Virus record (IMG/VR): IMGVR_UViG_3300021133_000001
Coordinates: 1-64,000 of that record
Direction: 5' to 3' (one strand)
Length of the DNA: 64,000 nt
DNA from: a virus
Lineage: Duplodnaviria; Caudoviricetes
A program made the translations under genes and the position numbers. Below, in pieces: positions 14,546 through 54,954 of the stretch. The notes below the pieces were generated by a model. It was not told the origin of the DNA, did no database searches, and saw nothing but the letters and a program-made list of their open reading frames with translations. Position 1 is the stretch's first letter, and every line of letters starts with the position of its first letter.

Positions 14546-15231
14546 GTACATTACATTTTTATGGTGGTTGTTTTGGTAAGTACGGGTCTGTGGGTGTAAA
14601 TGGATATAGTGGCGTACCGTTTACTTCATCTAGTGGTAATTCTTATATAGAAATACTATCTAAAAAATTAGGATTAGAGTTAAAAAATAGAAGTAAAACA
14701 GGAGCAAGTAACTTTACTGTATTTGAGCATATACTAATCGATATTGAAAACGGGTTCTTTAAAGAAGACGATATAGTTTTTTGGGAGCTAACTGATACGT
14801 CTATTACATGGTCCTCTATAGGAGCAGATATACAAATGAACGTAGTACCAGATCAAATATTAAAGTATTACCCACAAATGATGGTACTAAGAAACATGTA
14901 TCATAAATTTTTTTACAATGAACAACAATCAGTTGTAAATTCTGCAGGGCTTGTATACTATCTTAAGGCAGTACTCAAGTGTAAGTTTTATTTCTCTTTT
15001 CTAGAAGACTTTGAGAATATTAAACGCATAAGCCCGGCTATATTTAATAGCATGGTTACAGATAAATGCTTCATATCTAGTGAAGGTAAGAGTGTGTATC
15101 AATATGTTAAGTCTTTACCTAATAAAGAAGAACTGTTTTTTTACCCTTATGATATGGTACATCCTTCTATAGAAGGACACAAGATAATGGCTGATGAGTA
15201 CTATAAAGCTATACAGTCAAAGACTCTTTAA
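14542..15231 (+). CDS. SGNH-like protein with Cys at the catalytic-Ser position
   Basis: FYGGCF, NRSKTGASN, DMVHPSIEGH. Confidence 0.65.
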   Translation: MSTLHFYGGCFGKYGSVGVNGYSGVPFTSSSGNSYIEILSKKLGLELKNRSKTGASNFTVFEHILIDIENGFFKEDDIVFWELTDTSITWSSIGADIQMNVVPDQILKYYPQMMVLRNMYHKFFYNEQQSVVNSAGLVYYLKAVLKCKFYFSFLEDFENIKRISPAIFNSMVTDKCFISSEGKSVYQYVKSLPNKEELFFYPYDMVHPSIEGHKIMADEYYKAIQSKTL

Positions 15232-16456
15232 TACATAATAACTCGGGCATAACCTTGTAGGTGTCTTCTCCTCTAATACTATCGAGCTTTTCAGTATACT
15301 CTACAAACCTTTGAGCAAGTTTAATGTCTTGAGGCTCATTTAATACATTTAATATAAGTTTAAGCTTACTTGATAAGTCACAACCGGTACGTTCTTTAAA
15401 CTCTTTTATAAAGTTTATTATTTTCTCTTTAGTTTTTACTTTAAACTCTTCTGGTAATACTTTTATACTAACATAGTAAGGTATGTAAACGTTACCTATA
15501 GTAAAGTTTAAATACTTCGATTCTTCACTGAGCACTTTAGCTTCGTATAAATAGTTTATAAGTTCAGGTATACGGTTAACGTTCATTGCATTAACAGTAA
15601 TATTAGGTCTCATTTTTATACCCTCTCTAATAAGAGTGCTGAGATTTGCTTCTATGTCTTTCCATACAGTACCACATCTTAATAGCTCTGCTCGTTCTCC
15701 TGTTTCATCTATACTTGGCCATACTGTAAGTTTATCTCTAGGCCATTGCTTCCACATCTCTATTACGTTCCAATCTTTATACTGAAGCTTACTTAAATTG
15801 GTATGATAGGTTAATGTACAAAAGTTATTATTAGTTATTAGATGCTCAAGTAACTCATAGTGTTCATCCATTATAAGAGGCTCTCCACCTGCAAACTGTA
15901 TACGTTCTACCTTGCTTGCGTTTTCTTTTAAGTACTCTAAACTTGACTTACCATCAATATTTTCATGCTGAGCTAACTTTTGTATTTCTTTCTCATCGTT
16001 AGTTAACTTGCGTGCATCTGGTACCCAAGCTGAACTAGAAAGAGGGCCACACATTCTACATTTAAAGTTACATTTATTACTAAACCTTACATCCCAAAAT
16101 ATTAAATTAAAGTCGTTATAAGTACCATCTGATTCTGTATCGGTTATAGCCTTGTCTATTTGAGTTTTAAAGAAGTCGTTCATGTGCTCTCTACTACTCT
16201 TTTCTCCGCTTGCTTCTTTATCGTAACACTTTACACAAACATCTACTGGCTTACCTTCAATCATATCTTTTCGATATTGTTTCATTAAAGGACTGTTCCA
16301 CATCTCTTTTAAGGTAGATGTCTTTGTATTACCTAGCACAGTACTCTTTCTACGATGCTGCATTATACAACAAGGAGTCACATCTCCGTTACATTCAAAC
16401 ATTAAATGCGTCCAGAGCCTTACACAAAAAGACTTATTATTGGTAATATCTACCAT
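15209..16456 (-). CDS. Radical SAM protein with N-terminal SPASM/twitch-like domain
   Basis: C..LW...PCC...CVKC; CNFKCRMC; FAGGEPL. Confidence 0.92.
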   Translation of the reverse strand: MVDITNNKSFCVRLWTHLMFECNGDVTPCCIMQHRRKSTVLGNTKTSTLKEMWNSPLMKQYRKDMIEGKPVDVCVKCYDKEASGEKSSREHMNDFFKTQIDKAITDTESDGTYNDFNLIFWDVRFSNKCNFKCRMCGPLSSSAWVPDARKLTNDEKEIQKLAQHENIDGKSSLEYLKENASKVERIQFAGGEPLIMDEHYELLEHLITNNNFCTLTYHTNLSKLQYKDWNVIEMWKQWPRDKLTVWPSIDETGERAELLRCGTVWKDIEANLSTLIREGIKMRPNITVNAMNVNRIPELINYLYEAKVLSEESKYLNFTIGNVYIPYYVSIKVLPEEFKVKTKEKIINFIKEFKERTGCDLSSKLKLILNVLNEPQDIKLAQRFVEYTEKLDSIRGEDTYKVMPELLCIKESLTV

Positions 16457-25065: not shown

Positions 25066-26397
25066 TTATGCGTGTGCAAACTCTTCAGTATCGTCTGCTT
25101 TTTTTAATGGTGGTACGTCAATTAAAAATACATCATTCAGCTCTGGTATAACGTCATATGTTTTTTCATCTCTAATTTTATCGAGCTTTTCTGTCATTTC
25201 AATAAATGTCTTTTTAGCTTCTGCATTATGAGGTAAAGTTAATTGATGCTTAATATATGCAAACTTATCTGTATAATCAGCGTTATAAGTTTGTTTCATT
25301 TTTTCTATAAAAGCATTTAATTTATCAGTTATTTGCTGTCTAAAATTATCGCTTAATATAGAGACGTGATACTGTATAGGTGTTTCAAGTAAGTTAATAA
25401 ACCAGTTTTGATAGTTATGCTTCTCTTTAATAACGCCTATATATATTAAATGTTCAATCATTTCAGGTAATCTAAATACGTTAAATGCACTAATAGTCAT
25501 ACCAGGACGTACTTCAATGTCTAGTTCGGACATTGCTTTAAGATTTGCTTCTACATCAGCCCATATAGTACCTTTTCTGATTAGCTCAGCTCTAGGTCCA
25601 ATCTCGTCAATACTTGGCCATACTGAAATTTTATCTGGATCCCATTTGCGCCAGTAATCTAATACATTTTTACCTTTATACTTTAAGTTACTTGTATTAG
25701 TATTGTAGCATATGAATACATCTGTCCTGCCTTGTTCCAAAAGAGTATCAAGGATAAAATAATGTTCATCCATAATTAAAGGCTCACCACCTGCAAAATA
25801 TATTTTACGCACTTCTGCGGTATGTTTCTTTAAGAACTCAAAACGACTCTCATTATCAACGTTATCAGTCTTTTTAACCTTATTGACCCAGAGTTTCATT
25901 CCATCGTGCTCAGGCTTTGGTTCAATGCCACCATGATACAACTGCTTTGCATCTTCTACCCAAGCTGAACTATAAGTAGGTCCGCAAGATCTACATCTAA
26001 AATTACATTTATTACTGAACCTAAAATCCCAATACTTTAAGTCAATTTTACTACAAGAGCCGTCTTCAGCTGTAATCTCAGCTACCTCAGCTATTTTATC
26101 TCGGAAGTACCAATTGTGGTATACTCTGTTACTTTCACCTGGCGTAACTCTTTCTTTATCAAAACACTTACGACAAGCTTTAGGTTCTACACCTGCAAGC
26201 ATTTGCTTACGAAGAGTTTTCATATTATCACTATTCCATATCTCTTCAATAGACATAGTGTTAAGGTTACCTGCTTCGTAGTTCTGTTCAGCAGTCATAC
26301 AACAAGGTATAACCTTTCCATCTGGTTCAAAAGCTAAGTGTGTCCAGGGTATGGTACAAAAAGTTGGGCTCGGTGTATTGACTTCAGTAGTTGGCAT
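25066..26397 (-). CDS. Radical SAM protein with N-terminal SPASM/twitch-like domain
   Basis: CTIPW..PCC..CRKC; CNFRCRSC; FAGGEPL. Confidence 0.92.
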   Translation of the reverse strand: MPTTEVNTPSPTFCTIPWTHLAFEPDGKVIPCCMTAEQNYEAGNLNTMSIEEIWNSDNMKTLRKQMLAGVEPKACRKCFDKERVTPGESNRVYHNWYFRDKIAEVAEITAEDGSCSKIDLKYWDFRFSNKCNFRCRSCGPTYSSAWVEDAKQLYHGGIEPKPEHDGMKLWVNKVKKTDNVDNESRFEFLKKHTAEVRKIYFAGGEPLIMDEHYFILDTLLEQGRTDVFICYNTNTSNLKYKGKNVLDYWRKWDPDKISVWPSIDEIGPRAELIRKGTIWADVEANLKAMSELDIEVRPGMTISAFNVFRLPEMIEHLIYIGVIKEKHNYQNWFINLLETPIQYHVSILSDNFRQQITDKLNAFIEKMKQTYNADYTDKFAYIKHQLTLPHNAEAKKTFIEMTEKLDKIRDEKTYDVIPELNDVFLIDVPPLKKADDTEEFAHA

Positions 26398-26411
26398 TTT
26401 TAAAATATTTA

Positions 26412-27659
26412 TTAAGGTTGTTCAAGCATGCACTTTAATTCTGGTATAACTTCAAAGATATTTTCATTTCTAATTCCATCTAATTTTATATTAAACTCAA
26501 AAAACTTATCTTTGTATTCTGGATTATGAGGTTCATCTAATAATTTAAGAACATAATTAAATCTGGAAGTTAAATCGAAATCGGTTTTCTCCTTGAACTC
26601 AGTTAAAAAGTTCTCTATCTTTATTTTTGTTTTTAATTTAAATTCATCGGGTAACGCTGTAATATGTAAAGATTCAGGAGAGTCAATTACATTTATGTTA
26701 AAATTTAAGTAGGCCTGTTTTTTATCTAGTACGTCGTTTTTAAAGAAATATGCTATTATTTCTGGTAATCTGTATACATTTAACGCTCCGGTAGTTACAT
26801 TAGGTCTAATATGATAACCCTCTTTAACTAGCTTCTTTAAATTCATTTCTATTTTAAACCAATCTGAACCCTTTCTTACGAATTCTGCTCTTTCTCCTAT
26901 TTCATCAATACTAGGCCAGATTTGTAAATTTTTCTTTGGCCATTTATTCCAAAAGTCAATTACATTCCAGTTTTTATATACAAGTGTATTTAAATTAGTA
27001 TTATAATTTATATTACAATTAGTATTACCAGCTTCTAATAACATCTCTAACACCTCGTAGTGCTCGTCCATTATAAGAGGCTCTCCACCAGCAAAGTAAA
27101 TTTGCTTTACTTTACTCACATGTTCTTTAATAAAATCTAACTTCGTCTTACCCTCTACATTTTCTAGGTTTGTAAGTTTTTCTCTTTCTGTTATAGACAT
27201 GTCATGTGCCCAAAGCTTTTTAGCATCTGGTACCCAAGCTGAACTAAAGTTGGGTCCGCATGACCTACATCTTAAATTACATTTATTACTAAATCTGAAG
27301 TCCCAATATATAAGATCAAATTGCTCGTTATACCCGTCTTCTCTTGTATAATACTCTACGGCTTCTAGTTCTTTTTTAAATACATTATTATCTGCTGTAC
27401 GAGTAGAGGAGCCTGTACTCTCTTCTATTCTATAACATCTATCACACCAAGCTGGCTTTTTATCTTCCAGCATATCTTTTCTTAGTTGCATCATTGCAGG
27501 ACTATTCCATATCTCTTCCAAGGATTGAGTCTTAAGATTACCTACTATAGTCTTTTCTTCATCCATAATACAGCACGGACGCACGTTACCGTTAGGTAAA
27601 AAGTTTAAATGGGTCCAAGGTCTAATACAAATAGACTTATTTGAAGTACAAGAAGACAT
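26412..27659 (-). CDS. Radical SAM protein with N-terminal SPASM/twitch-like domain
   Basis: CIRPW..PCC..CDRC; CNLRCRSC; FAGGEPL. Confidence 0.92.
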   Translation of the reverse strand: MSSCTSNKSICIRPWTHLNFLPNGNVRPCCIMDEEKTIVGNLKTQSLEEIWNSPAMMQLRKDMLEDKKPAWCDRCYRIEESTGSSTRTADNNVFKKELEAVEYYTREDGYNEQFDLIYWDFRFSNKCNLRCRSCGPNFSSAWVPDAKKLWAHDMSITEREKLTNLENVEGKTKLDFIKEHVSKVKQIYFAGGEPLIMDEHYEVLEMLLEAGNTNCNINYNTNLNTLVYKNWNVIDFWNKWPKKNLQIWPSIDEIGERAEFVRKGSDWFKIEMNLKKLVKEGYHIRPNVTTGALNVYRLPEIIAYFFKNDVLDKKQAYLNFNINVIDSPESLHITALPDEFKLKTKIKIENFLTEFKEKTDFDLTSRFNYVLKLLDEPHNPEYKDKFFEFNIKLDGIRNENIFEVIPELKCMLEQP

Positions 27660-28978
27660 TATGTATAATTTATAGTGTTTTTTATTTTTTGCAATCCAGG
27701 TTTTAACCTAAATGCTGCAAGGCTACCTACATCCATTTTTTCATTGTCAAATATAGAATCTTTAATTATCTTAACAAACACTTCATGCTCTGGATGCTCT
27801 TTTAACCATATAGCTTTTTTAGCAAACAAATCCGTCTCTACTAATCTTAAATGGCCCCAATCAGCTATAGGGTTAAACCACACACTATATATAGTCTTAT
27901 ATTGAGAGTAATGTTTAGCGAAATCAGCCATTTCCTTGTAATTGTCTGCCTGTACTATGAAGTTAACATTCCAAGGCATATACTCAATTATCTTACCTTT
28001 GTCGTCTCGTTTAATACATTGACTGCCAATCTCAAGAGATTCTACTCTTTCATTAAGCCAGTGTACATTTTTCATTACTGATTCTAAGTTACCACGTTTT
28101 CTAATTTTAGAATACGTTTCAATAGTCATTGCATCAATTGAAATAGATATCCATTCAATTTTATTCCATAAGTTTTTAATTTTATTCATTCTTTCTGGAG
28201 TCATTAGTACTCCATTAGTTTGAAGCTTAATTCTTAATTTACTGTACTCTGGCTGCAATACTTTTTCATTCAACTCTAACAAGTAGTTCCAATACAAATC
28301 ACTAGCAAAAGGATCCCCAGAACCAGTTATGTTTAATGCGACAGTTTCAGCATCTTCCCTCTTCAATAATATCTCTACCATGTCTTCTATACGTTTTTGT
28401 ACTTTAGTAAGCTTTGCAAAGCCTTCTGGGTCTTTACTAGCTAGTACGTGTATAAATTCATTTCTACACGAAGGGCATTGCAAATTACAAGAACGGTCAT
28501 GGTTAAATATTATTACATAATCTCTTTTAGCTTTTCTTTTTAACCAACCTATACTTGTCTTACTAGTTATAGTGGTATATTTTGTAATTTTTTCTTCTGT
28601 TAATTTAGCCTTTTTCCAGTTACGGTTTATATACATTTTTTCCGGCTTAGTTACGGAATTGTCTAGAGTACTGACAGGCTGTTTTACGTCTCGAACTTGA
28701 TCACTCAAAAAAGATACTAAATTAGGGCAATAATCTGTACAGTAAGACCACTTACCTTCTTCCATATCTTTAACAATATGTTCAAGTATAGGAGAGCTAA
28801 GCACTTCTTCTGCAGTTTGAGTGTTAAAATTACCTATCTCTTTTCTCATCCACGATCTACAACATACTTCTACCCCACCGTCGTCATATACTTGAAACTG
28901 TAAGTACGGAAATATACAGACATGCGTCTTAAGACTGTCTAAGTTAAACTTACCTTCAGGGTTAACTTTGTATATCAT
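27659..28978 (-). CDS. Radical SAM protein, subtype 2
   Basis: CIFPY..VCC..CTDYCP; CNLQCPSC; GSGDPF; LQTNG. Confidence 0.9.
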   Translation of the reverse strand: MIYKVNPEGKFNLDSLKTHVCIFPYLQFQVYDDGGVEVCCRSWMRKEIGNFNTQTAEEVLSSPILEHIVKDMEEGKWSYCTDYCPNLVSFLSDQVRDVKQPVSTLDNSVTKPEKMYINRNWKKAKLTEEKITKYTTITSKTSIGWLKRKAKRDYVIIFNHDRSCNLQCPSCRNEFIHVLASKDPEGFAKLTKVQKRIEDMVEILLKREDAETVALNITGSGDPFASDLYWNYLLELNEKVLQPEYSKLRIKLQTNGVLMTPERMNKIKNLWNKIEWISISIDAMTIETYSKIRKRGNLESVMKNVHWLNERVESLEIGSQCIKRDDKGKIIEYMPWNVNFIVQADNYKEMADFAKHYSQYKTIYSVWFNPIADWGHLRLVETDLFAKKAIWLKEHPEHEVFVKIIKDSIFDNEKMDVGSLAAFRLKPGLQKIKNTINYT

Positions 28979-30168
28979 GACTTTGATCTAAATGTAGCGA
29001 GACTGCCTATATTAGCTTTTGGATGGTTGAATATAGGGTCTTTAAGTATTTCAATAAAATTATTATACTCAGGGTGTTCTTTTCTCCATACAGCCTTTCT
29101 ATTAAAAAGCCCTGCTTCAGCCATATCTAAATGGCCCCAATCATCAATAGGGTTAAGCCATACATTATGTATACTATTATAAGAAGTATACAGTTTAGTA
29201 AATTCAGCCATCTCTTTATAATTGTCTGTCTGTACTATAAAATTAACACACCATGGACATAAATCAGTCGATTCCGGTTCACCTATTTCCCTTGCTTCGA
29301 CTTTTTCATTTAACCATTTTACATTCTTCTGTACTGCTTCTAAATTTCCACGCTTTCTAACTATAGAGTATGTTTCTTGAGTAGCTGCGTCAATTGAAAT
29401 GGATATCCAGTTAATTCTTGGCCAGAGATTTTTAATTTTATCCATTCTTTCTGGAGTCATTAGTACTCCATTAGTTTGTAATTTTACACGTAGTTTACTG
29501 TACTCAGGTAACAATACCTTTTCATTTAATTCTAATAAATAATTCCAGTATAATTCGCTCGCGAAAGGATCTCCCGAACCTGTAATGTTAGCACAAACTG
29601 TACTAGCATCTTCTCTTAACATTAAAAGTTCAATCATCCTCTCTATCTCTTTTTGAACCTTGTAAAGTGTGTTATATTTTTCAGGATTCTTTTTAGAAGA
29701 AATATGTATGAATTCATTTCTGCAAGACGGGCATTGCAAGTTACATGATTGATCATGATTGAAAAAGATTACATAGTCTTTATATCTCAACCTCTCTCTT
29801 AAAGAATTATCAACCACAGAGTCTGTTCTTTCTTTTGGTGTAATAACTGTAAATTTAAGATCACCATTACCGCCATTTTCAGGTCTACTCTTTAAAAACC
29901 GCACCGCCAAAGGACATACATCAGTACAGTAAGACCAATTCCCTGCTTCCATATCTTCTATTATATCTTTTAATACAGGAGAATTGATAATTTCTTCTGC
30001 GGTTTGAGTAGCTAAATTACCAATCACTTTGTTCTTCATCCAAGACCTGCAGCATACTTCAACGTCAAAATCACTATAAACCTGAAACTGCATATATGGG
30101 TACATACAAACATGCGTTTTTAATCCGTCTAGGTTGTAGTTGTGATTAGGGTCTACTTCAAAAATCAT
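28975..30168 (-). CDS. Radical SAM protein, subtype 2, tandem paralog
   Basis: CMYPY..VCC..CTDVCP; CNLQCPSC; GSGDPF. Confidence 0.9.
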   Translation of the reverse strand: MIFEVDPNHNYNLDGLKTHVCMYPYMQFQVYSDFDVEVCCRSWMKNKVIGNLATQTAEEIINSPVLKDIIEDMEAGNWSYCTDVCPLAVRFLKSRPENGGNGDLKFTVITPKERTDSVVDNSLRERLRYKDYVIFFNHDQSCNLQCPSCRNEFIHISSKKNPEKYNTLYKVQKEIERMIELLMLREDASTVCANITGSGDPFASELYWNYLLELNEKVLLPEYSKLRVKLQTNGVLMTPERMDKIKNLWPRINWISISIDAATQETYSIVRKRGNLEAVQKNVKWLNEKVEAREIGEPESTDLCPWCVNFIVQTDNYKEMAEFTKLYTSYNSIHNVWLNPIDDWGHLDMAEAGLFNRKAVWRKEHPEYNNFIEILKDPIFNHPKANIGSLATFRSKS

Positions 30169-34855: not shown

Positions 34856-37189
34856 TTAGAACTTGAATGTGACGTCAGCTGTTAGGTTAGTATCAGTTAA
34901 CGTTGCTTGCTTTTGTTGACCAGCACCAATAGTACCGGAAATGTACTTTGTTGGAGTAGCTTGCAAGTTAAGCTTGTATGTTGTAATGCCATCAATACCC
35001 TTTGACTTAGTAGGTGTTAAGTAACCACCTTCAGCAATAACTCTGAAAGCATCCCCGAACTGATAGTCAAAGCGTAAGCCACCTTCTGCTGCAGCACGAG
35101 TTACCTTAGCAGCATCAAATGATTGAGCAGTATAAGCATCGCCTGTTTCAGTAATAGCATCAAGTGAGCTTGTTTCGAAACGACCACCAATGAAAGGAGC
35201 GAAACCAAAGTAACTCTTTGAATATAAACGCTCATTTAACCAGATGTCTTTACCATTACCCTTACCGGCATTAGCATAGTTTAGAGCAGCTAATGTATGA
35301 GTATTAGCAAAACGGTCATAAGCAAAACCAAGATCAGACTTTAATACTAATAGATTGTTAAACGTGGTTAAGTTATATAGACCTAAGTGATGCTTTTGTA
35401 ATGTACCAGTAGCTTGATCCCCGTTAATATTAGCATTAACAAAGTCATACTTTATACCGAATAGAACATCGGCTGTAACAAATGATTCAGCACCGATAGT
35501 AAATGTATTGCTTGAAGTTTTATACGTATCAGTCGTATTGCTACTTGTACGTGTATATGTTAAATAAGAGTTCCAACCATCATCTTTATTAGCATTCCAA
35601 GTACCGCCATAGTTGCGATCTAATGGATTAGAATCAACGAGCATATTATAACGACGGCTTGCAGCCTGTAGGTATGAATATTGATCGATACGAGTACCGT
35701 AATTAGCTACAGAACTTGTTACTGCTGTTGTGTTACCAGTAGTAACAATTTTAGCAGTTGATACTGAAGTATTTTCTGTAACTACTGGAGCACTATATGT
35801 TACTAATGTTGGTGTAGTGCCATCAGCATATACTGTAGTAGTAACAGCTGTATTAGTAGTAACATTAGTTACAGGTGTAACTGTTGTAGCAGTAGTTATT
35901 ACTGGTGTAACAGTAGTAACTGTAGTCGTCTTAGCGATGTTTAACACTTTAGTATCAGCTGACTTTGCTTTAGCTTGTGAATAAGCAGTGGTTGAAGCAG
36001 CTGTACCATTTACACTTGCATATGTGGTTGTTGGATTACCAAATACTGTTTGACTAGCAACGTTCTGGGTTGTTGTAGCTGTGCTGTATAAAGCATTAGC
36101 TGTTGTAACAACTGCATTGTTAACTACATTATCTGTAGTTGTTGGTGCACCGTAATATGTACTAATAAGATTACCATTAGCATCTTTAGTAACTGTAACA
36201 GGTGTAACTGTTGTAGCTGTATCTACTGGGGTAGTAGTTGTTGTAGTTGTTAGCTTATAAGTCTTAACTACTGGATTGTTACTTGCATCAACACTATTAG
36301 CAGTTGAATAAGCAATAGTAGCACCAACTACCGCGGTACCGTTTTTAGTAACTGTAGATGTTTGATTGGATGTAGTAGCTACTGTATAAAGAGAAGAGCT
36401 ATTAGCTGTTGAAACTGCAAATGATACATTTGTATTAGATGTTGGTGTACCATATACTGTACTAATAGTATTACCTGTACTATCTGCAATAACAGTCATC
36501 GGCGTCGTCACTGTAGTAGTAGCAACTGGAACTGTTGTAGTTGTTAATACGTTTAAGTTAGTAGTAACAATAGTTGAACCACCACTTGTAGTAGTAACAG
36601 GGGCATATGAATTAGCTAATGTTACGATAGGTGTTCCGTTTGATGTAGTTACAGCTACTGCATTAGTCGTAGTAGCAACTGTAGAAGGTGTTACTGCTGG
36701 TGTGGTAGTTACGACAGCGTTACCTGTTACAGATGTTGTTGCTCCGTTAACAGTTGTCCAGGTTGTCGGTGTAATTGTTGTTACTGTATCAAGATATGTT
36801 GTAGCAATAGTAGCACCATTAGCTGTTGATGTAACAGTGCGAGGTGCTGTTGATGTTGTAGTAACATTACCTGTTGTGACAGTCTGTACTGGTACTGTAC
36901 CATGGTTTACAGTGACAACTGGCGAGCCGTTTGTTGTTACTGAACTATTATCACTATATAAAGTGACTGTAGTAGGGATTGTCGTGGTAGTTGTATTAAC
37001 ATATGTATTATCAATAGAGAAACCGTAAGCGTTAGTTGCAACTACATCTACTGGAGTAGTTGTTACGGTTACTATTGGAGTGCCGTTTGTTGTACTAACA
37101 ACTGTTGGTGAGCCACCGCCCGCCATAAGTGAAGTACTAACTGCAAACGTCAATATAGTTAATGCGATTAGTTTTAGGATTTGTTTCAT
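34856..37189 (-). CDS. Autotransporter-like outer-membrane protein with Thr/Val-rich repetitive passenger
   Basis: Signal peptide from MKQILKL (37189); C-terminal amphipathic beta-strands ending in F; TATAAATA upstream. Confidence 0.8.
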   Translation of the reverse strand: MKQILKLIALTILTFAVSTSLMAGGGSPTVVSTTNGTPIVTVTTTPVDVVATNAYGFSIDNTYVNTTTTTIPTTVTLYSDNSSVTTNGSPVVTVNHGTVPVQTVTTGNVTTTSTAPRTVTSTANGATIATTYLDTVTTITPTTWTTVNGATTSVTGNAVVTTTPAVTPSTVATTTNAVAVTTSNGTPIVTLANSYAPVTTTSGGSTIVTTNLNVLTTTTVPVATTTVTTPMTVIADSTGNTISTVYGTPTSNTNVSFAVSTANSSSLYTVATTSNQTSTVTKNGTAVVGATIAYSTANSVDASNNPVVKTYKLTTTTTTTPVDTATTVTPVTVTKDANGNLISTYYGAPTTTDNVVNNAVVTTANALYSTATTTQNVASQTVFGNPTTTYASVNGTAASTTAYSQAKAKSADTKVLNIAKTTTVTTVTPVITTATTVTPVTNVTTNTAVTTTVYADGTTPTLVTYSAPVVTENTSVSTAKIVTTGNTTAVTSSVANYGTRIDQYSYLQAASRRYNMLVDSNPLDRNYGGTWNANKDDGWNSYLTYTRTSSNTTDTYKTSSNTFTIGAESFVTADVLFGIKYDFVNANINGDQATGTLQKHHLGLYNLTTFNNLLVLKSDLGFAYDRFANTHTLAALNYANAGKGNGKDIWLNERLYSKSYFGFAPFIGGRFETSSLDAITETGDAYTAQSFDAAKVTRAAAEGGLRFDYQFGDAFRVIAEGGYLTPTKSKGIDGITTYKLNLQATPTKYISGTIGAGQQKQATLTDTNLTADVTFKF

Positions 37190-37259
37190 ACTCGTATATT
37201 TATAAGCTCTTCTGAGAATATCTCCACTGTTAAGTTTAACTCTTTGGCAACAACAAGAT

Positions 37260-37288
37260 AAAAAAAGAGCTCCATTTCTGAAGCTCTT
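37260..37288 (-). terminator. Intrinsic terminator
   Basis: AAGAGCTTC/GGAGCTCTT stem plus U-tract, just after the -1 frame stop. Confidence 0.8.
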
Positions 37289-37329
37289 GAATATTAAAAC
37301 TTCCAACCTTTAACTGTGAAGTTCGAAAC

Positions 37330-37380
37330 CCAGCGTACCGCGCTTGTTGCTAAACGGGTTACGCTGGTTGTTATTTTCCC
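37330..37380 (-). other. Putative -1 programmed ribosomal frameshift signal
   Basis: G_GGA_AAA immediately before the stop, 6-nt spacer, stem CCAGCGTA...TACGCTGG. Confidence 0.75.
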
Positions 37381-38435
37381 AGCGTACCGAGTTGTGTTTC
37401 TACTGCAGTTAAACGATCCGCAATAGCATCAAGTGCTGGATCAGCTTGTACTGCATCAGCAACTTGTGCAACAACAGCAGGAGCAACTGTATCAACACCA
37501 GTAGCAGAAGCAACAACATTAGCAACAGCAGCTGTTACTTGGTCTTGTACTGCTGCAGCAGGAGCAGGTAGTGCAGCAACTGCATCAGTAATAGCAGCTG
37601 TTACAGCAACTGGATCAGTTACAGTAGCAGGGTCTGCATTAACAACAGCAGCAACAGCTGTCGATACAGCAGCAACAACATCAGGATGATCTGCTGCAGG
37701 TGCTTGTGCAACATCAGCAACAACGTTAGTTATAACAGTTGCAGCAGCAGGAACATCTGCGCTTGGGCTATCTGCTACTACGCTTGCAGCAACTGCTTGA
37801 GCTGTAGCTTCTGGTACTGGATCAGCTGCAACGATATCTGCAACTGTATTAGTTATTGGGCAAGCAGCAACTGCGTCAGCAACAGCGGCTGTAGTAGCAT
37901 CGCTTGGAGCTGTGCCTGTAGCAGCTGTAACAATAGCAGCAACAGCATCAGTAGCAGCTTGAGCTTGAACAGGATCTGTAATAGCAGGAGCAGCAGCAAC
38001 TGCATCAGTAATAGCTGCTGTAACTGCTACTGGATCTTGTACTGTAGCAGGATCAGCTGTAACTACAGCAGTAACTGCGGCACCAACAGCTGCAGCAACG
38101 TCTGGGTTAGCAACAGCAGGTGCAGCGGCTTGAGCAGCAACTACATCTGATACAATATCAGCAGCAGCAGGTACTGCAGCAGATGGACTTAAAGCGACGA
38201 CAGCATCAACTGGAGCTGGTGCTTGGGTAGCTGGAGCAACTACAATAGCAGCAACTGCATCAGCAGCTGGTTTTGTGACGAGATCGTTTACTGTTTTTTC
38301 AACAATAGTAAGACGAGTATCTAGTTCTTGGATGCTAGCAGCATCAACGCCAGGAGCCTGTAGGCCTGCCAGCGTGGTTAATTTGGTTTCTACCGCAGTT
38401 AAACGTGCGGCTAAGGATTCAATTGTGTTTGCCAT
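37371..38435 (-). CDS. Ala/Val/Asp/Pro-rich protein with two internal ~110-aa repeats and terminal coiled coils
   Basis: RLT(A/I)VE three times; no aromatic residues; TAAATA upstream. Confidence 0.85.
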   Translation of the reverse strand: MANTIESLAARLTAVETKLTTLAGLQAPGVDAASIQELDTRLTIVEKTVNDLVTKPAADAVAAIVVAPATQAPAPVDAVVALSPSAAVPAAADIVSDVVAAQAAAPAVANPDVAAAVGAAVTAVVTADPATVQDPVAVTAAITDAVAAAPAITDPVQAQAATDAVAAIVTAATGTAPSDATTAAVADAVAACPITNTVADIVAADPVPEATAQAVAASVVADSPSADVPAAATVITNVVADVAQAPAADHPDVVAAVSTAVAAVVNADPATVTDPVAVTAAITDAVAALPAPAAAVQDQVTAAVANVVASATGVDTVAPAVVAQVADAVQADPALDAIADRLTAVETQLGTLGK

Positions 38436-38540
38436 AGGTTCAAATAATATTTACACAAAAAAAAGCTCCGAGGGTGTCGGAACTTAAAAAAACTTAAACT
38501 ATTTTGCAAGGTTAATTTTTTTCACCTCCACCATTTACCA

Positions 38541-39299
38541 TTAGCGGTAAAACTTTGGCATTTGACGGTTACCATCCCAGTTTTCGCCCCACACAGGTGC
38601 ACGAGAACAGATATGATAAACGAAAGTAGCAGGTAGTAAGCGTCTCTTACTTTCAGGCCAGAGAGCTGAAAACATTGTATCGTCGTGAGCAGCTGAACCT
38701 AATGAGTAAGGATAGCTTTTCTGACAGCTTGCGTTCCATAATTGGAAATAACCGAGAGGTAGATAACCGTTTAATTGACTTACAAAGCGATGACCTACTT
38801 TACGGTCGATTTTTGGACCAGCTAAAAAAGTATGTTGATGTGAATCACCATCTAGTACTTGTTGTAATTCGTCTTTACCGATTACATCTATACGATCTGC
38901 ACCATATAAACAGGTACGATCGAGGTGCGTATGATTAAATAACATTCTCTTAAAGTTTTCAGGTAGAAGAATATCTGTATCTAAATGTAAGCGCCAACCG
39001 TGATACTGAAAATAATTCATGCCAGCATTAATAGCAGCTCCCTTATTAAAGTTACGGCCATTTTTTTGAAACAAATCTGTTGGTACGCAAATTGCACCGT
39101 GTTTGCGGCAGACGTTTTGGGTATCATAATCATCGTGAGCAGTCACAACAATAAATGTATCAGTCTGTTCAATATTTTCGTCAAGTGTAACATCAAGAAG
39201 GTCAGCAAAGCCAACCGACGTAGTGACCACTTCTAAACGAGTAGAATCTTGGTCGTATAAACTGGAATTACCAGTTGGATTATAATAGTAAGAGCTCAT
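38541..39299 (-). CDS. GT-A glycosyltransferase-like protein
   Basis: FNKGAAINAG, HLDTDI (DxD), GYFQL, DTMF. Confidence 0.75.
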   Translation of the reverse strand: MSSYYYNPTGNSSLYDQDSTRLEVVTTSVGFADLLDVTLDENIEQTDTFIVVTAHDDYDTQNVCRKHGAICVPTDLFQKNGRNFNKGAAINAGMNYFQYHGWRLHLDTDILLPENFKRMLFNHTHLDRTCLYGADRIDVIGKDELQQVLDGDSHQHTFLAGPKIDRKVGHRFVSQLNGYLPLGYFQLWNASCQKSYPYSLGSAAHDDTMFSALWPESKRRLLPATFVYHICSRAPVWGENWDGNRQMPKFYR

Positions 39300-53442: not shown

Positions 53443-54954
53443 TTATGGATACTGGTCTTTACAATCTAAATAAAATCTTGTCATTTCTGGGAACACACTT
53501 AAAAAGCTTGTACCACGACGAGAATCACACTCATCAATAAACTGGTGAAACGCTCTACGTATTACTGCAATGTCTGAACGACCAATACCTTCTACAATAG
53601 CTTTTTTCATTACTTCTAATACACGTTCCATTTCTTGTGCACAAAGTTCTGGAAAACCAGGCTTAGTAACTCTATAACCACCAGGTATGTGTACATCTAC
53701 TTCAACTTTGCGTATACGCTCGTTCATATACTGTACACACTCTTCCATATAGCGTAAATAATCTTCAGTTAATATCCAAGCACTCATATACTCAGGTTGT
53801 CTAAGATATGGTATACTAATAACTAAAGGTTGCACTCTATCAAGCGATCTAGTATGTTTCTCAATTAAATAGTAACTGTCTGTTAAAAAGTCTTTAAACG
53901 AAGTAACAGACATTGCATTATATGTGCACATGAATACCATTTCTACTTTAGGGCATTCAGTGAATATACGATCAACGTTTTCATACCAAGTTTTATAATT
54001 CAAGCCTGCACGTATATATTCACCTCTCTTACCATAAGCTTCACCACTTGTATAAACTGTAATACGTTTAGCAGCGTTTGCTTCTGCAATTCTGTTTAGA
54101 TATGTTATAAGCTTATCTATATAGAGTTTAGGTGCACCTAAGTTAGTATTAACACTGAACATCATCTCAGGTTGAGGATGTTCAATAAAGTAATCCATCA
54201 ACTTAAATGTGTTTTTACTGAGTAGTGGTTCTCCACCGGTTAATCTTAATTCTCGTAATTCTCCACTAGCTATAATACCAGGAAACCATTCCCAAAAAGC
54301 CTTAATGTAAGGGTTACTATCTTCATCTTCAATTGGTAACCTAGACTCCATTTCTAACTGCTTTAGAGAGTTAGTTATAAATGCACCAGCGTGTATGGAA
54401 CCGTGTTCTCTAATTTCTTTCGTCCAGGTAGACGAATAAGCTGGTGTACAATACAAACACTTAAAGTTACACGCATTTGAAAAGTCTAATTCTAAAGACT
54501 TCGGTATAATATCTACATCCCAAGGCATCTGAGGTACTGTATTAATACGATCATCATTCCAAGATGTAGCACTCTTTCTTACCCTATCACTAAACAAATT
54601 CGGGTTATTTAAATCTTCAATACGCCAACAAAAATTACACTCTTCCGGACGCTTACCCTCAAGCATCATTTTACGTTTTTCTTTTTTATCGTTAGTATTG
54701 TGTAAAGCAGAAACGTTCTTCTTAAGCTCGTCTAACGGTATCTTGTGTGGTGGACAATGATGACAGCTATGAGTGGTACCGTTAGTAAGGTGTATAGTTA
54801 CTTGATTCCATTTAGCTAAACAAAAGCTTGTACTAGTGGCATCTAGTTTGTCTTTTACAGCTTGGAGTCTCTGTACAGCATTAGCTGCTTCAGCATTCAA
54901 TGGCTTACCATCAGCTGATTTGGGTGAAATCTTGTTCTCGGTGTCTGTAGACAT
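53443..54954 (-). CDS. Radical SAM protein, subtype 3
   Basis: CLAKW..HSCHHC..CNFCW; CNFKCLYC; LTGGEPL. Confidence 0.92.
   Translation of the reverse strand: MSTDTENKISPKSADGKPLNAEAANAVQRLQAVKDKLDATSTSFCLAKWNQVTIHLTNGTTHSCHHCPPHKIPLDELKKNVSALHNTNDKKEKRKMMLEGKRPEECNFCWRIEDLNNPNLFSDRVRKSATSWNDDRINTVPQMPWDVDIIPKSLELDFSNACNFKCLYCTPAYSSTWTKEIREHGSIHAGAFITNSLKQLEMESRLPIEDEDSNPYIKAFWEWFPGIIASGELRELRLTGGEPLLSKNTFKLMDYFIEHPQPEMMFSVNTNLGAPKLYIDKLITYLNRIAEANAAKRITVYTSGEAYGKRGEYIRAGLNYKTWYENVDRIFTECPKVEMVFMCTYNAMSVTSFKDFLTDSYYLIEKHTRSLDRVQPLVISIPYLRQPEYMSAWILTEDYLRYMEECVQYMNERIRKVEVDVHIPGGYRVTKPGFPELCAQEMERVLEVMKKAIVEGIGRSDIAVIRRAFHQFIDECDSRRGTSFLSVFPEMTRFYLDCKDQYP

Follow-up and report, generated by a model that had tools for sequence, protein, structure and literature searches.

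In the present study, we analysed a window of 64,000 nucleotides (nt), which covers positions 1 to 64,000 of the IMG/VR virus record IMGVR_UViG_3300021133_000001 (Duplodnaviria; Caudoviricetes). The analysis concerned the 3′ end of a single gene, where a programmed −1 ribosomal frameshift appears to add a short amphipathic tail to an acidic helical protein. The source record is 140 kilobases (kb) long and was estimated to be 44% complete. All parts of the gene, including the open reading frame (ORF), heptamer, stem, tail, and terminator, lie on the minus strand. The 0-frame gene (37371–38435) encodes an all-helical acidic protein of 354 residues, which is rich in Ala, Val, Thr, Asp, and Pro (113, 63, 38, 31, and 27 residues, respectively) and contains no Phe, Trp, or Tyr. 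Its isoelectric point (pI) is 4.05, with 37 Asp and Glu residues against 7 Lys and Arg residues. Three helices of the protein carry an RLxxVE motif in heptad register, namely RLTAVE at residues 11–16, RLTIVE at residues 41–46, and RLTAVE at residues 341–346. These motifs map to the two N-terminal helices and the C-terminal helix, which are the most conserved parts of the family, and their R, L, V, and E positions are invariant or nearly so among the relatives. The gene forms a unit of its own, with one terminator on each side.

The last codons of the gene are CTG GGA AAA TAA. The slippery heptamer G_GGA_AAA (37374–37380) therein follows the X_XXY_YYZ pattern in the 0 frame and occupies the last two sense codons. 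The 0-frame stop codon TAA (37371–37373) lies directly 3′ of the heptamer and forms the first half of a 6-nt spacer; a stop codon directly 3′ of the slip site is the layout of nearly all homologs. A candidate stimulatory stem-loop (37330–37367) starts 6 nt past the heptamer and has an interrupted stem of 15 base pairs (bp), 8 in the outer and 7 in the inner helix. The 60-nt segment containing this stem folded at −20.9 kcal/mol, with z = −3.6 relative to dinucleotide shuffles. The −1 frame through the slip site reads K-ITTSVTRLATSAVRWVSNFTVKGWKF-stop. The extension (37294–37374) consists of 26 codons (37374–37297) for ITTSVTRLATSAVRWVSNFTVKGWKF and the stop codon TAA (37296–37294), and the predicted transframe product has 380 residues. 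In contrast to the acidic 354-residue body, the tail has a pI of about 12, a net charge of +4, and no acidic residue. An intrinsic-terminator-like hairpin with a T-run (37265–37288) is located past the −1 stop, and in the relatives the terminator likewise lies 3′ of the −1 stop and not of the 0-frame stop. The original prediction for this locus had described the heptamer, the 6-nt spacer, the stem of about 15 bp, the −1 ORF ending just ahead of a terminator, and a basic, aromatic extension behind an acidic body free of Phe, Trp, and Tyr, and all of these elements were present where it had placed them.

A profile search retrieved 64 related loci, and the viral contigs that carry them are up to 525 kb long. 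The family is small, comprising 39 representatives when 1.84 billion proteins are clustered at 50%, and it is divided into two deep clades. One clade has a short form of 214 residues; the other has a long form of 354–362 residues with an internal duplication and includes the window protein. Each homologous protein ends in L(L)GK or L(L)GN. A major capsid protein of the T4 type, Gp23, is encoded by four complete relatives (297–525 kb), and the family can accordingly be assigned to giant T4-like phages from freshwater; Gp23 was not found in the window's own 140-kb record. A blastn search against cultured phage genomes returned only a 77-nt low-complexity match, and a tblastn search with a 214-residue relative against cultured phage genomes returned no match. 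Judging from these searches, the family is so far confined to metagenomes, and no cultured phage genome carries the gene.

The comparative analysis covered 50 distinct gene ends derived from independent metagenome assemblies, of which 47 came from all loci and three (L066, L067, and L069) from additional assemblies. The canonical heptamer (G_GGR_AAR/C) was kept in 42 of the 50 ends, in the forms G_GGA_AAG, G_GGA_AAA, G_GGG_AAG, and G_GGA_AAC, and was located directly 5′ of the stop codon (one codon earlier in L002). All 42 heptamer-bearing ends possessed an open −1 frame of 13–27 codons with one amphipathic pattern. By comparison, the 0 frame and the +1 frame stayed open for at least 13 codons past the stop in only 13/42 and 14/42 ends, respectively, with a chance expectation of 0.38 from base composition. 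An intact tail was found in none of the eight ends without the heptamer, which were of the TTA-, GGC-, or GTA-type. A recognisable tail was broken by nonsense codons in three of them (L050, L053, and L064), and the middle of the tail was deleted in L049. Another three had no tail, which was deleted in L043 and replaced by an unrelated −1 frame in L066 and L067, and the terminator came directly after the 0-frame stop, at about 25 nt; in the last one (L019), the −1 frame was likewise unrelated. When the broken states were placed on a maximum-likelihood tree of 47 proteins, they required 5–6 changes, at least two of which were forced by well-supported branches. As reconstructed on this tree, the heptamer and the tail have been lost together several times, in scattered positions. 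No argument for a single functional unit of heptamer and tail is stronger than this coupling of the losses.

Constraint was also detected in the codons of the slip site. The last Leu codon ended in G in 43 of 47 ends, compared with 22% of the Leu codons in gene bodies, and the last Gly codon was GGA or GGG in 44 of 47 ends, compared with 24% of the Gly codons in gene bodies. The three reading frames of the tail region were then compared in 15 aligned tails of 18 codons, which shared 63% nucleotide identity. The −1 frame contained 0 stops, scored 2.36 per residue with BLOSUM62, and had a hydrophobic/polar class conservation of 0.96. The corresponding values were 4 stops, 1.34, and 0.79 for the 0 frame, and 25 stops, 0.97, and 0.86 for the +1 frame. 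As far as these alignments can tell, the comparison shows that conservation at the protein level is confined to the −1 frame of the tail region.

The consensus of the fifteen 18-codon tails was V/I-I-x-x-h-(K/Q/R)-x-(W/F)-h-x-x-h-F-K-S/T-G/D-T/P-K/R. On a helical wheel of this 18-residue consensus, the hydrophobic positions 1, 2, 5, 8, 9, 12, and 13 fell within an arc of 140 degrees. These positions were encoded by varied codons across lineages, and the swaps from Trp to Phe (TGG to TTT) require two base changes. The best 11-residue hydrophobic moment was 0.74 in the window tail and averaged 0.70 among the family tails, compared with 0.47 ± 0.15 for shuffled tails. C-terminal membrane-targeting amphipathic helices are known from MinD and FtsA. 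The tail has the hydrophobic moment, charge, and pI of such a short C-terminal cationic amphipathic helix; like those helices, it is short and C-terminal, has a Lys/Arg face opposite a Trp/Phe/Leu/Ile face, and is predicted to sit on a self-associating protein. Unlike in MinD and FtsA, to which there is no homology, the helix would be present here only on the frameshifted fraction of the protein.

Stem-loops downstream of the heptamer were found in both clades. In the long clade, the stem began exactly 6 nt past the heptamer in all relatives and had a folding energy of −16 to −24 kcal/mol; its outer 7 bp (CCAGCGU/ACGCUGG) were conserved, and the inner helices varied. In the short clade, most lineages had a hairpin of 5–9 bp starting 4–9 nt past the heptamer. 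These short-clade stems were unrelated in sequence and register and included CCAGCG/CGCUGG, CCAACG/CGUUGG, AAAAUCCAA/UUGGAUUUU, GCUUCC/GGAAGC, AUCAAAC/GUUUGAU, and UCGAUUCAU/AUGGAUCGA, with yet another stem sequence in the divergent L069. Such a pattern is what selection for a structure of whatever sequence at the proper distance would produce, in keeping with a stimulator. The original prediction of a programmed −1 frameshift with a downstream stem had named homologs without heptamer and stem as the finding that would speak against it. The homologs kept the heptamer, the stem, and the −1 ORF, and the 50 gene ends provided strong comparative support for this prediction.

What was directly observed is the signal, the extent to which it is conserved, and the joint disappearance of heptamer and tail in some relatives. 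We estimate a probability of about 80% that the gene yields a transframe protein by −1 frameshifting. In the proposed mechanism, most ribosomes would stop at TAA (37373–37371) and release the 354-residue acidic helical protein. A fraction would slip one base back on G_GGA_AAA while the P site holds tRNA-Gly on GGA and the A site holds tRNA-Lys on AAA, and the slip would probably be favoured by the hairpin starting 6 nt downstream together with the adjacent stop codon. The shifted ribosomes would read 26 further codons in the −1 frame to give the 380-residue form, which would end in a basic amphipathic helix bearing Trp and Phe. Through this tail, a minority of the self-associating subunits would probably be tethered, either at the inner membrane or on a partner protein.

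One alternative is that no recoding takes place and that the region is a conserved structured 3′ untranslated region (UTR), with an mRNA-stabilising or processing hairpin by the terminator and the −1 peptide as a by-product. The stem arms CCAGCG/CGCUGG, which encode T-S and R-W, are conserved as nucleotides, and a second hairpin further downstream survives the loss of the heptamer, which indicates that RNA elements are under selection in the 3′ region. However, the skewed Leu and Gly codons lie inside the coding region, and a 3′-UTR element cannot explain them because these constrained synonymous sites are 5′ of the stop codon. The 42 open −1 frames out of 42, against 13 and 14 in the other two frames, would also be left unexplained. 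Moreover, the amphipathic pattern and the aromatic residue persist where the stem sequences and registers differ, and the decay of the tail ORF coincides exactly with the loss of the heptamer, for which a UTR element offers no reason. We therefore consider a purely structural 3′ UTR unlikely.

Two further explanations would keep the tail ORF but separate it from frameshifting, and we regard both as very improbable. A micro-ORF reinitiated after the 0-frame stop would yield a free cationic peptide of 13–27 residues; its start would adjoin the stop codon, and small cationic amphipathic peptides can act alone. Nevertheless, the first −1 codons are GTA or ATA followed by ATT, ATA, or ATC, none of the start codons ATG, GTG, and TTG is conserved at this place, and GTG occurs only in a few sequences with a TGA stop. 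The last codons of the gene contain no Shine-Dalgarno-like element, and the conservation of the heptamer would be left without a reason. Since stops close the −1 frame within a few codons 5′ of the slip site and no start codon is conserved in the tail, the tail does not appear to be a separately initiated gene. The tail might otherwise be a decaying, unexpressed relic of an in-frame C-terminus that was cut off by a frameshift mutation, and decay of this kind is indeed seen in L050, L053, L064, L049, and L043. The tail is nevertheless open, amphipathic, and linked to the heptamer in both deep clades, whose proteins are only about 50% identical, and it is kept although nucleotide identity is 63% even inside the short clade. 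Because decay is quick where the heptamer has been lost, the tail would be under selection elsewhere. Two technical or transcriptional origins were also considered and rejected. A sequencing error at the A-run does not account for a frame relation that is shared by more than 40 independent assemblies, most of them with AAG, which is not a homopolymer. Transcriptional slippage is unlikely, as the A-run has just 3–4 bases.

Several results weigh against production of the transframe protein by −1 frameshifting. The RNAalifold consensus of the long clade consisted of the outer 7-bp stem only and contained zero compensatory changes. RNAalifold on 29 short-clade ends gave no consensus structure, because the hairpins are out of register. 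About eight heptamer-bearing lineages (L011, L013, L014, L015, L018, L028, L030, and L057) had no convincing hairpin. The excess of third-position differences in the tail was modest, with 656 differences at the first, 574 at the second, and 762 at the third codon position. In many lineages, the peptide motif T-S-x-K-R-W is partly encoded by the conserved stem arms CCAGCG/CGCUGG, and part of the apparent peptide conservation may thus be RNA constraint, since these arms encode T-S and R-W. No homolog with an in-frame tail was found among 69 proteins from the first search and 38 further representatives. Natural confirmation by an in-frame fusion is therefore missing, yet this is what would be expected if both forms are needed. 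Finally, L070 keeps G_GGA_AAA, but its gene end is frame-shifted, and its −1 ORF has only 7 codons and is acidic. This contig encodes P0004; about 8 codons ahead of the usual end, its reading frame changes by one base (L070:2000–2220), and the protein ends in ...NRWENN. A strong 12-bp hairpin and a tRNA-like sequence follow the −1 ORF of L070, which may be an assembly error or a degenerate copy. Apparent fusions of family proteins to fragments of EF-Ts or glutamine synthetase were also encountered and set aside, as they look like chimeric contigs.

The original prediction had also proposed that a second sequence competes for pairing with the 5′ arm, by which the frameshift might be switched. 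A 12-mer, CGGTACGCTGGG, occurs twice in the window. The downstream copy (37329–37340) is the 3′ arm of the stem, and the upstream copy (37378–37389) can pair with the 5′ arm, in which case the slip site and the stop codon fall in the loop. This alternative upstream hairpin was predicted in five of six long-clade lineages at −9.6 to −13 kcal/mol, with −13.0 kcal/mol in the window and −9.6 to −12 kcal/mol in its long-clade relatives, and it was weak or absent in the short clade. Conservation of the pairing between the upstream 12-mer and the 5′ arm was confined to the long clade. Thus, the competing pairing is real in the window and in most long-clade relatives, but an RNA switch based on it was not established and must be called unproven. 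A switch is also doubtful because the upstream arm is buried in the ribosome, and unavailable for pairing, at the moment when the slip site is decoded.

To describe the protein itself, we used structure prediction and structure-based searches. The AlphaFold2 model was all-α, with a mean predicted local distance difference test (pLDDT) score of 84.2. The family protein had no match in Pfam, PHROG, or NCBIfam, and Foldseek against the PDB gave no match at E ≤ 0.001. The best hit of a wide VIA-align search (Z 7.0, root-mean-square deviation 4.0, 104 residues aligned) was under the noise level for helical models. A shape search of the ESM Atlas returned the family itself only (template modelling score 0.27 by query and 0.42 by Atlas row), and a feature search of the Atlas returned no usable match. 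A three-copy model of a 214-residue relative reached a score of 0.48, compared with 0.00 for the best of three controls. In calibration, a score of 0.48 was reached by 20 of 30 one-chain-pair structures and by 1 of 23 single-chain structures, a rough guide given that three copies and our own alignment were used here, unlike in the calibration. The runs shared at least 92% of the contacts, and the partner pLDDT was at least 82. In the model, the C-terminal helix (residues 191–213) of one copy packs on the N-terminal helices (residues 2–54) of the next copy. The modelling supports self-association, and in place of a parallel homotrimer it suggests three-helix bundles formed head to tail. The RLT(A/I)VE sequences, which the original prediction had read as a trimer motif, are present as described above, whereas the homotrimeric scaffold derived from them was not established, the contacts of the model being head to tail. 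In this model, the helix that makes the head-to-tail contact is the one whose end would carry the frameshift tail.

The genomic neighbourhood consists of glycosyltransferases and accessory genes. Upstream of the gene, the window encodes three GT2 glycosyltransferases, a DUF6445 protein, a UDP-galactopyranose mutase, and an APS-kinase-like gene; downstream, it encodes a 780-residue protein, an FG-GAP protein, and four radical SAM/SPASM genes. The immediate neighbours on the minus strand, at 34856–37198 (780 residues) and 38541–39299 (252 residues), had no match in Pfam, PHROG, or NCBIfam. In 37 relatives, the gene adjoins an LpxH/PlcP-like metallophosphoesterase and a GT4 or GT2 glycosyltransferase, sometimes with PstS; a PlcP-like phosphoesterase was not found in the window's own 140-kb record. 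Upstream of many short-clade genes, we found direct repeats (TGTCAC-N5-TGTCAC or TGTAAT-N5-TGTAAT, with 11-bp spacing) at 60–100 nt 5′ of the ATG (L051, L038, L036, L042, L058, and others). About 10 nt further on, the repeats are followed by TTAAATA, a GC-rich 5′ hairpin, and AAGGAG. By their sequence, the repeats and TTAAATA resemble a Pho box combined with a late promoter of the T4 type. In the window, a TAAATA element (38448–38453, minus strand) lies 13 nt 5′ of the ATG and might be the core of a T4-type late promoter, TTAAATA being found at a comparable place in short-clade relatives. The upstream regions of the window gene and of L002 contained no Pho-box-like repeats and no Shine-Dalgarno sequence.

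A membrane-directed tail is plausible because the relatives have a neighbourhood of phosphate-starvation, lipid-remodelling, and glycosyltransferase genes in a presumably late-expressed region. On the basis of its physico-chemical resemblance to known membrane-targeting helices and of this neighbourhood, we tentatively propose the tail as a membrane tether, with the odds rather against it. The wider proposal is equally doubtful: the frameshift might dose a membrane anchor, such that a fixed minority tethers a head-to-tail self-assembling acidic protein to the inner membrane of the host, where it organises or scaffolds lipid-remodelling and glycosyltransferase enzymes of the phage during late infection or phosphate starvation. 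The bacterial PlcP-Agt lipid-renovation operon and Pho-regulated phage genes offer a parallel in context, through the PlcP-like and glycosyltransferase neighbours and the Pho-box-like repeats of the relatives. Unlike in those systems, the window's record contains neither the phosphoesterase nor a Pho-box-like repeat, and the link is one of neighbourhood alone. If the minority isoform is indeed tethered, it would provide the first functional handle on a highly conserved protein near phosphate-starvation and envelope-modification genes.

The signal was compared with known frameshifting systems. In dnaX of E. coli, about 6 nt separate a heptamer ending in AAG from a simple stem-loop that acts as the 3′ stimulator; an upstream Shine-Dalgarno-like stimulator is also used, and frameshifting shortens the protein. 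The window gene resembles dnaX in heptamer, spacer, and stem-loop, but no Shine-Dalgarno-like stimulator is evident here, and the predicted product is longer. The lambda G/GT tail-assembly chaperone, like those of other g-t genes, has a slippery heptamer of the same class, and there, as predicted here, one mRNA gives two products at a set ratio, the longer of which has a C-terminal extra part. The window family has no sequence relation to gpG/gpT-type chaperones (no match in Pfam, PHROG, or NCBIfam), and the window gene is not located between the tail tube and tape-measure genes but among accessory genes, which bears out the earlier claim of a frameshift outside the tail-chaperone context. In addition, the extension is a helix of 13–27 residues instead of a domain, and the slip would take place on the last two sense codons, with the stop codon adjoining them. 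The heptamers G_GGA_AAC and G_GGA_AAG have been described as shift sites in viral g-t genes, and G_GGA_AAG is reported to be highly shift-prone in E. coli (PMC5009743). In gene 10 (10A/10B) of T7/T3, in the major head protein of phage A2, and in proteins that gain Ig-like domains by frameshifting, a −1 frameshift near the 3′ end gives a minor extended form (PMC5009743). The T7/T3 and A2 cases are alike in that a minor C-terminally extended form would stand beside a major form; they differ in being capsid proteins with extensions of at least 50 residues or whole domains, whereas a short helix would be added here to an acidic helical protein.

Previously annotated phage frameshifts belong almost entirely to tail-chaperone genes, with a few in capsid, polymerase, or transposase genes (PMC10885494, PMC5009743). 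In our literature search, no paper was found on this frameshift or on frameshift-added amphipathic tails in phages, and none was found on frameshifting that doses a membrane anchor. In its mechanism, the case is a textbook −1 signal; the novelty lies in the gene family, in a slip site formed by the final two codons right next to the stop, and in the kind of piece that is added, which is unusual in resembling a short amphipathic helix of the membrane-seeking type instead of a domain. The window extends the frameshift to the long clade with its 354-residue protein. The family is unannotated in T4-like phages of 300–525 kb, and its gene models, which always end at ...LGK, need to be corrected. 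The family also supplies naturally varied slip sites and hairpins with which −1 frameshifting beside a stop codon can be studied.

Some additional observations were made on the family and its loci. A subgroup of 312 residues (L019 and L049; P0044, P0046, P0052, and P0070) has an aromatic-rich mid-protein insert of about 100 residues with no Pfam match. In the two members with DNA read, L019 and L049, the Gly codon of the slip site is GGC and an intact tail is absent, and the insert may replace the role of the tail in this subgroup. One member, P0070, ends in LLGQ. The second hairpin, GCUGG-A(N2-5)CGU(A/G)A-CCAG(C/U), is conserved between the −1 stop and the terminator (L051:3702–3721) and occupies the same place, about 62 nt past the 0-frame stop, in 25 other short-clade loci; it does not occur in the window. 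It is retained in five loci with a broken frameshift signal (L019, L049, L050, L053, and L064). The L058 copy differs by two compensatory pair changes (GUGGG/UCCAC), and the hairpin was found once behind another gene (L030:6036). An Rfam search of four relatives' loci matched tRNAs only, with no match for the 3′ region or the second hairpin. In the window, four consecutive radical SAM/SPASM genes of 397–443 residues lie at 25066–30168 on the minus strand; together with further radical SAM genes at 15209–16456 and 53443–54954, they make an unusually large set for a phage. In the long-clade locus L003, the gene is surrounded by a tRNA gene cluster with at least eight members (L003:2150–2696 and L003:4333–4502).

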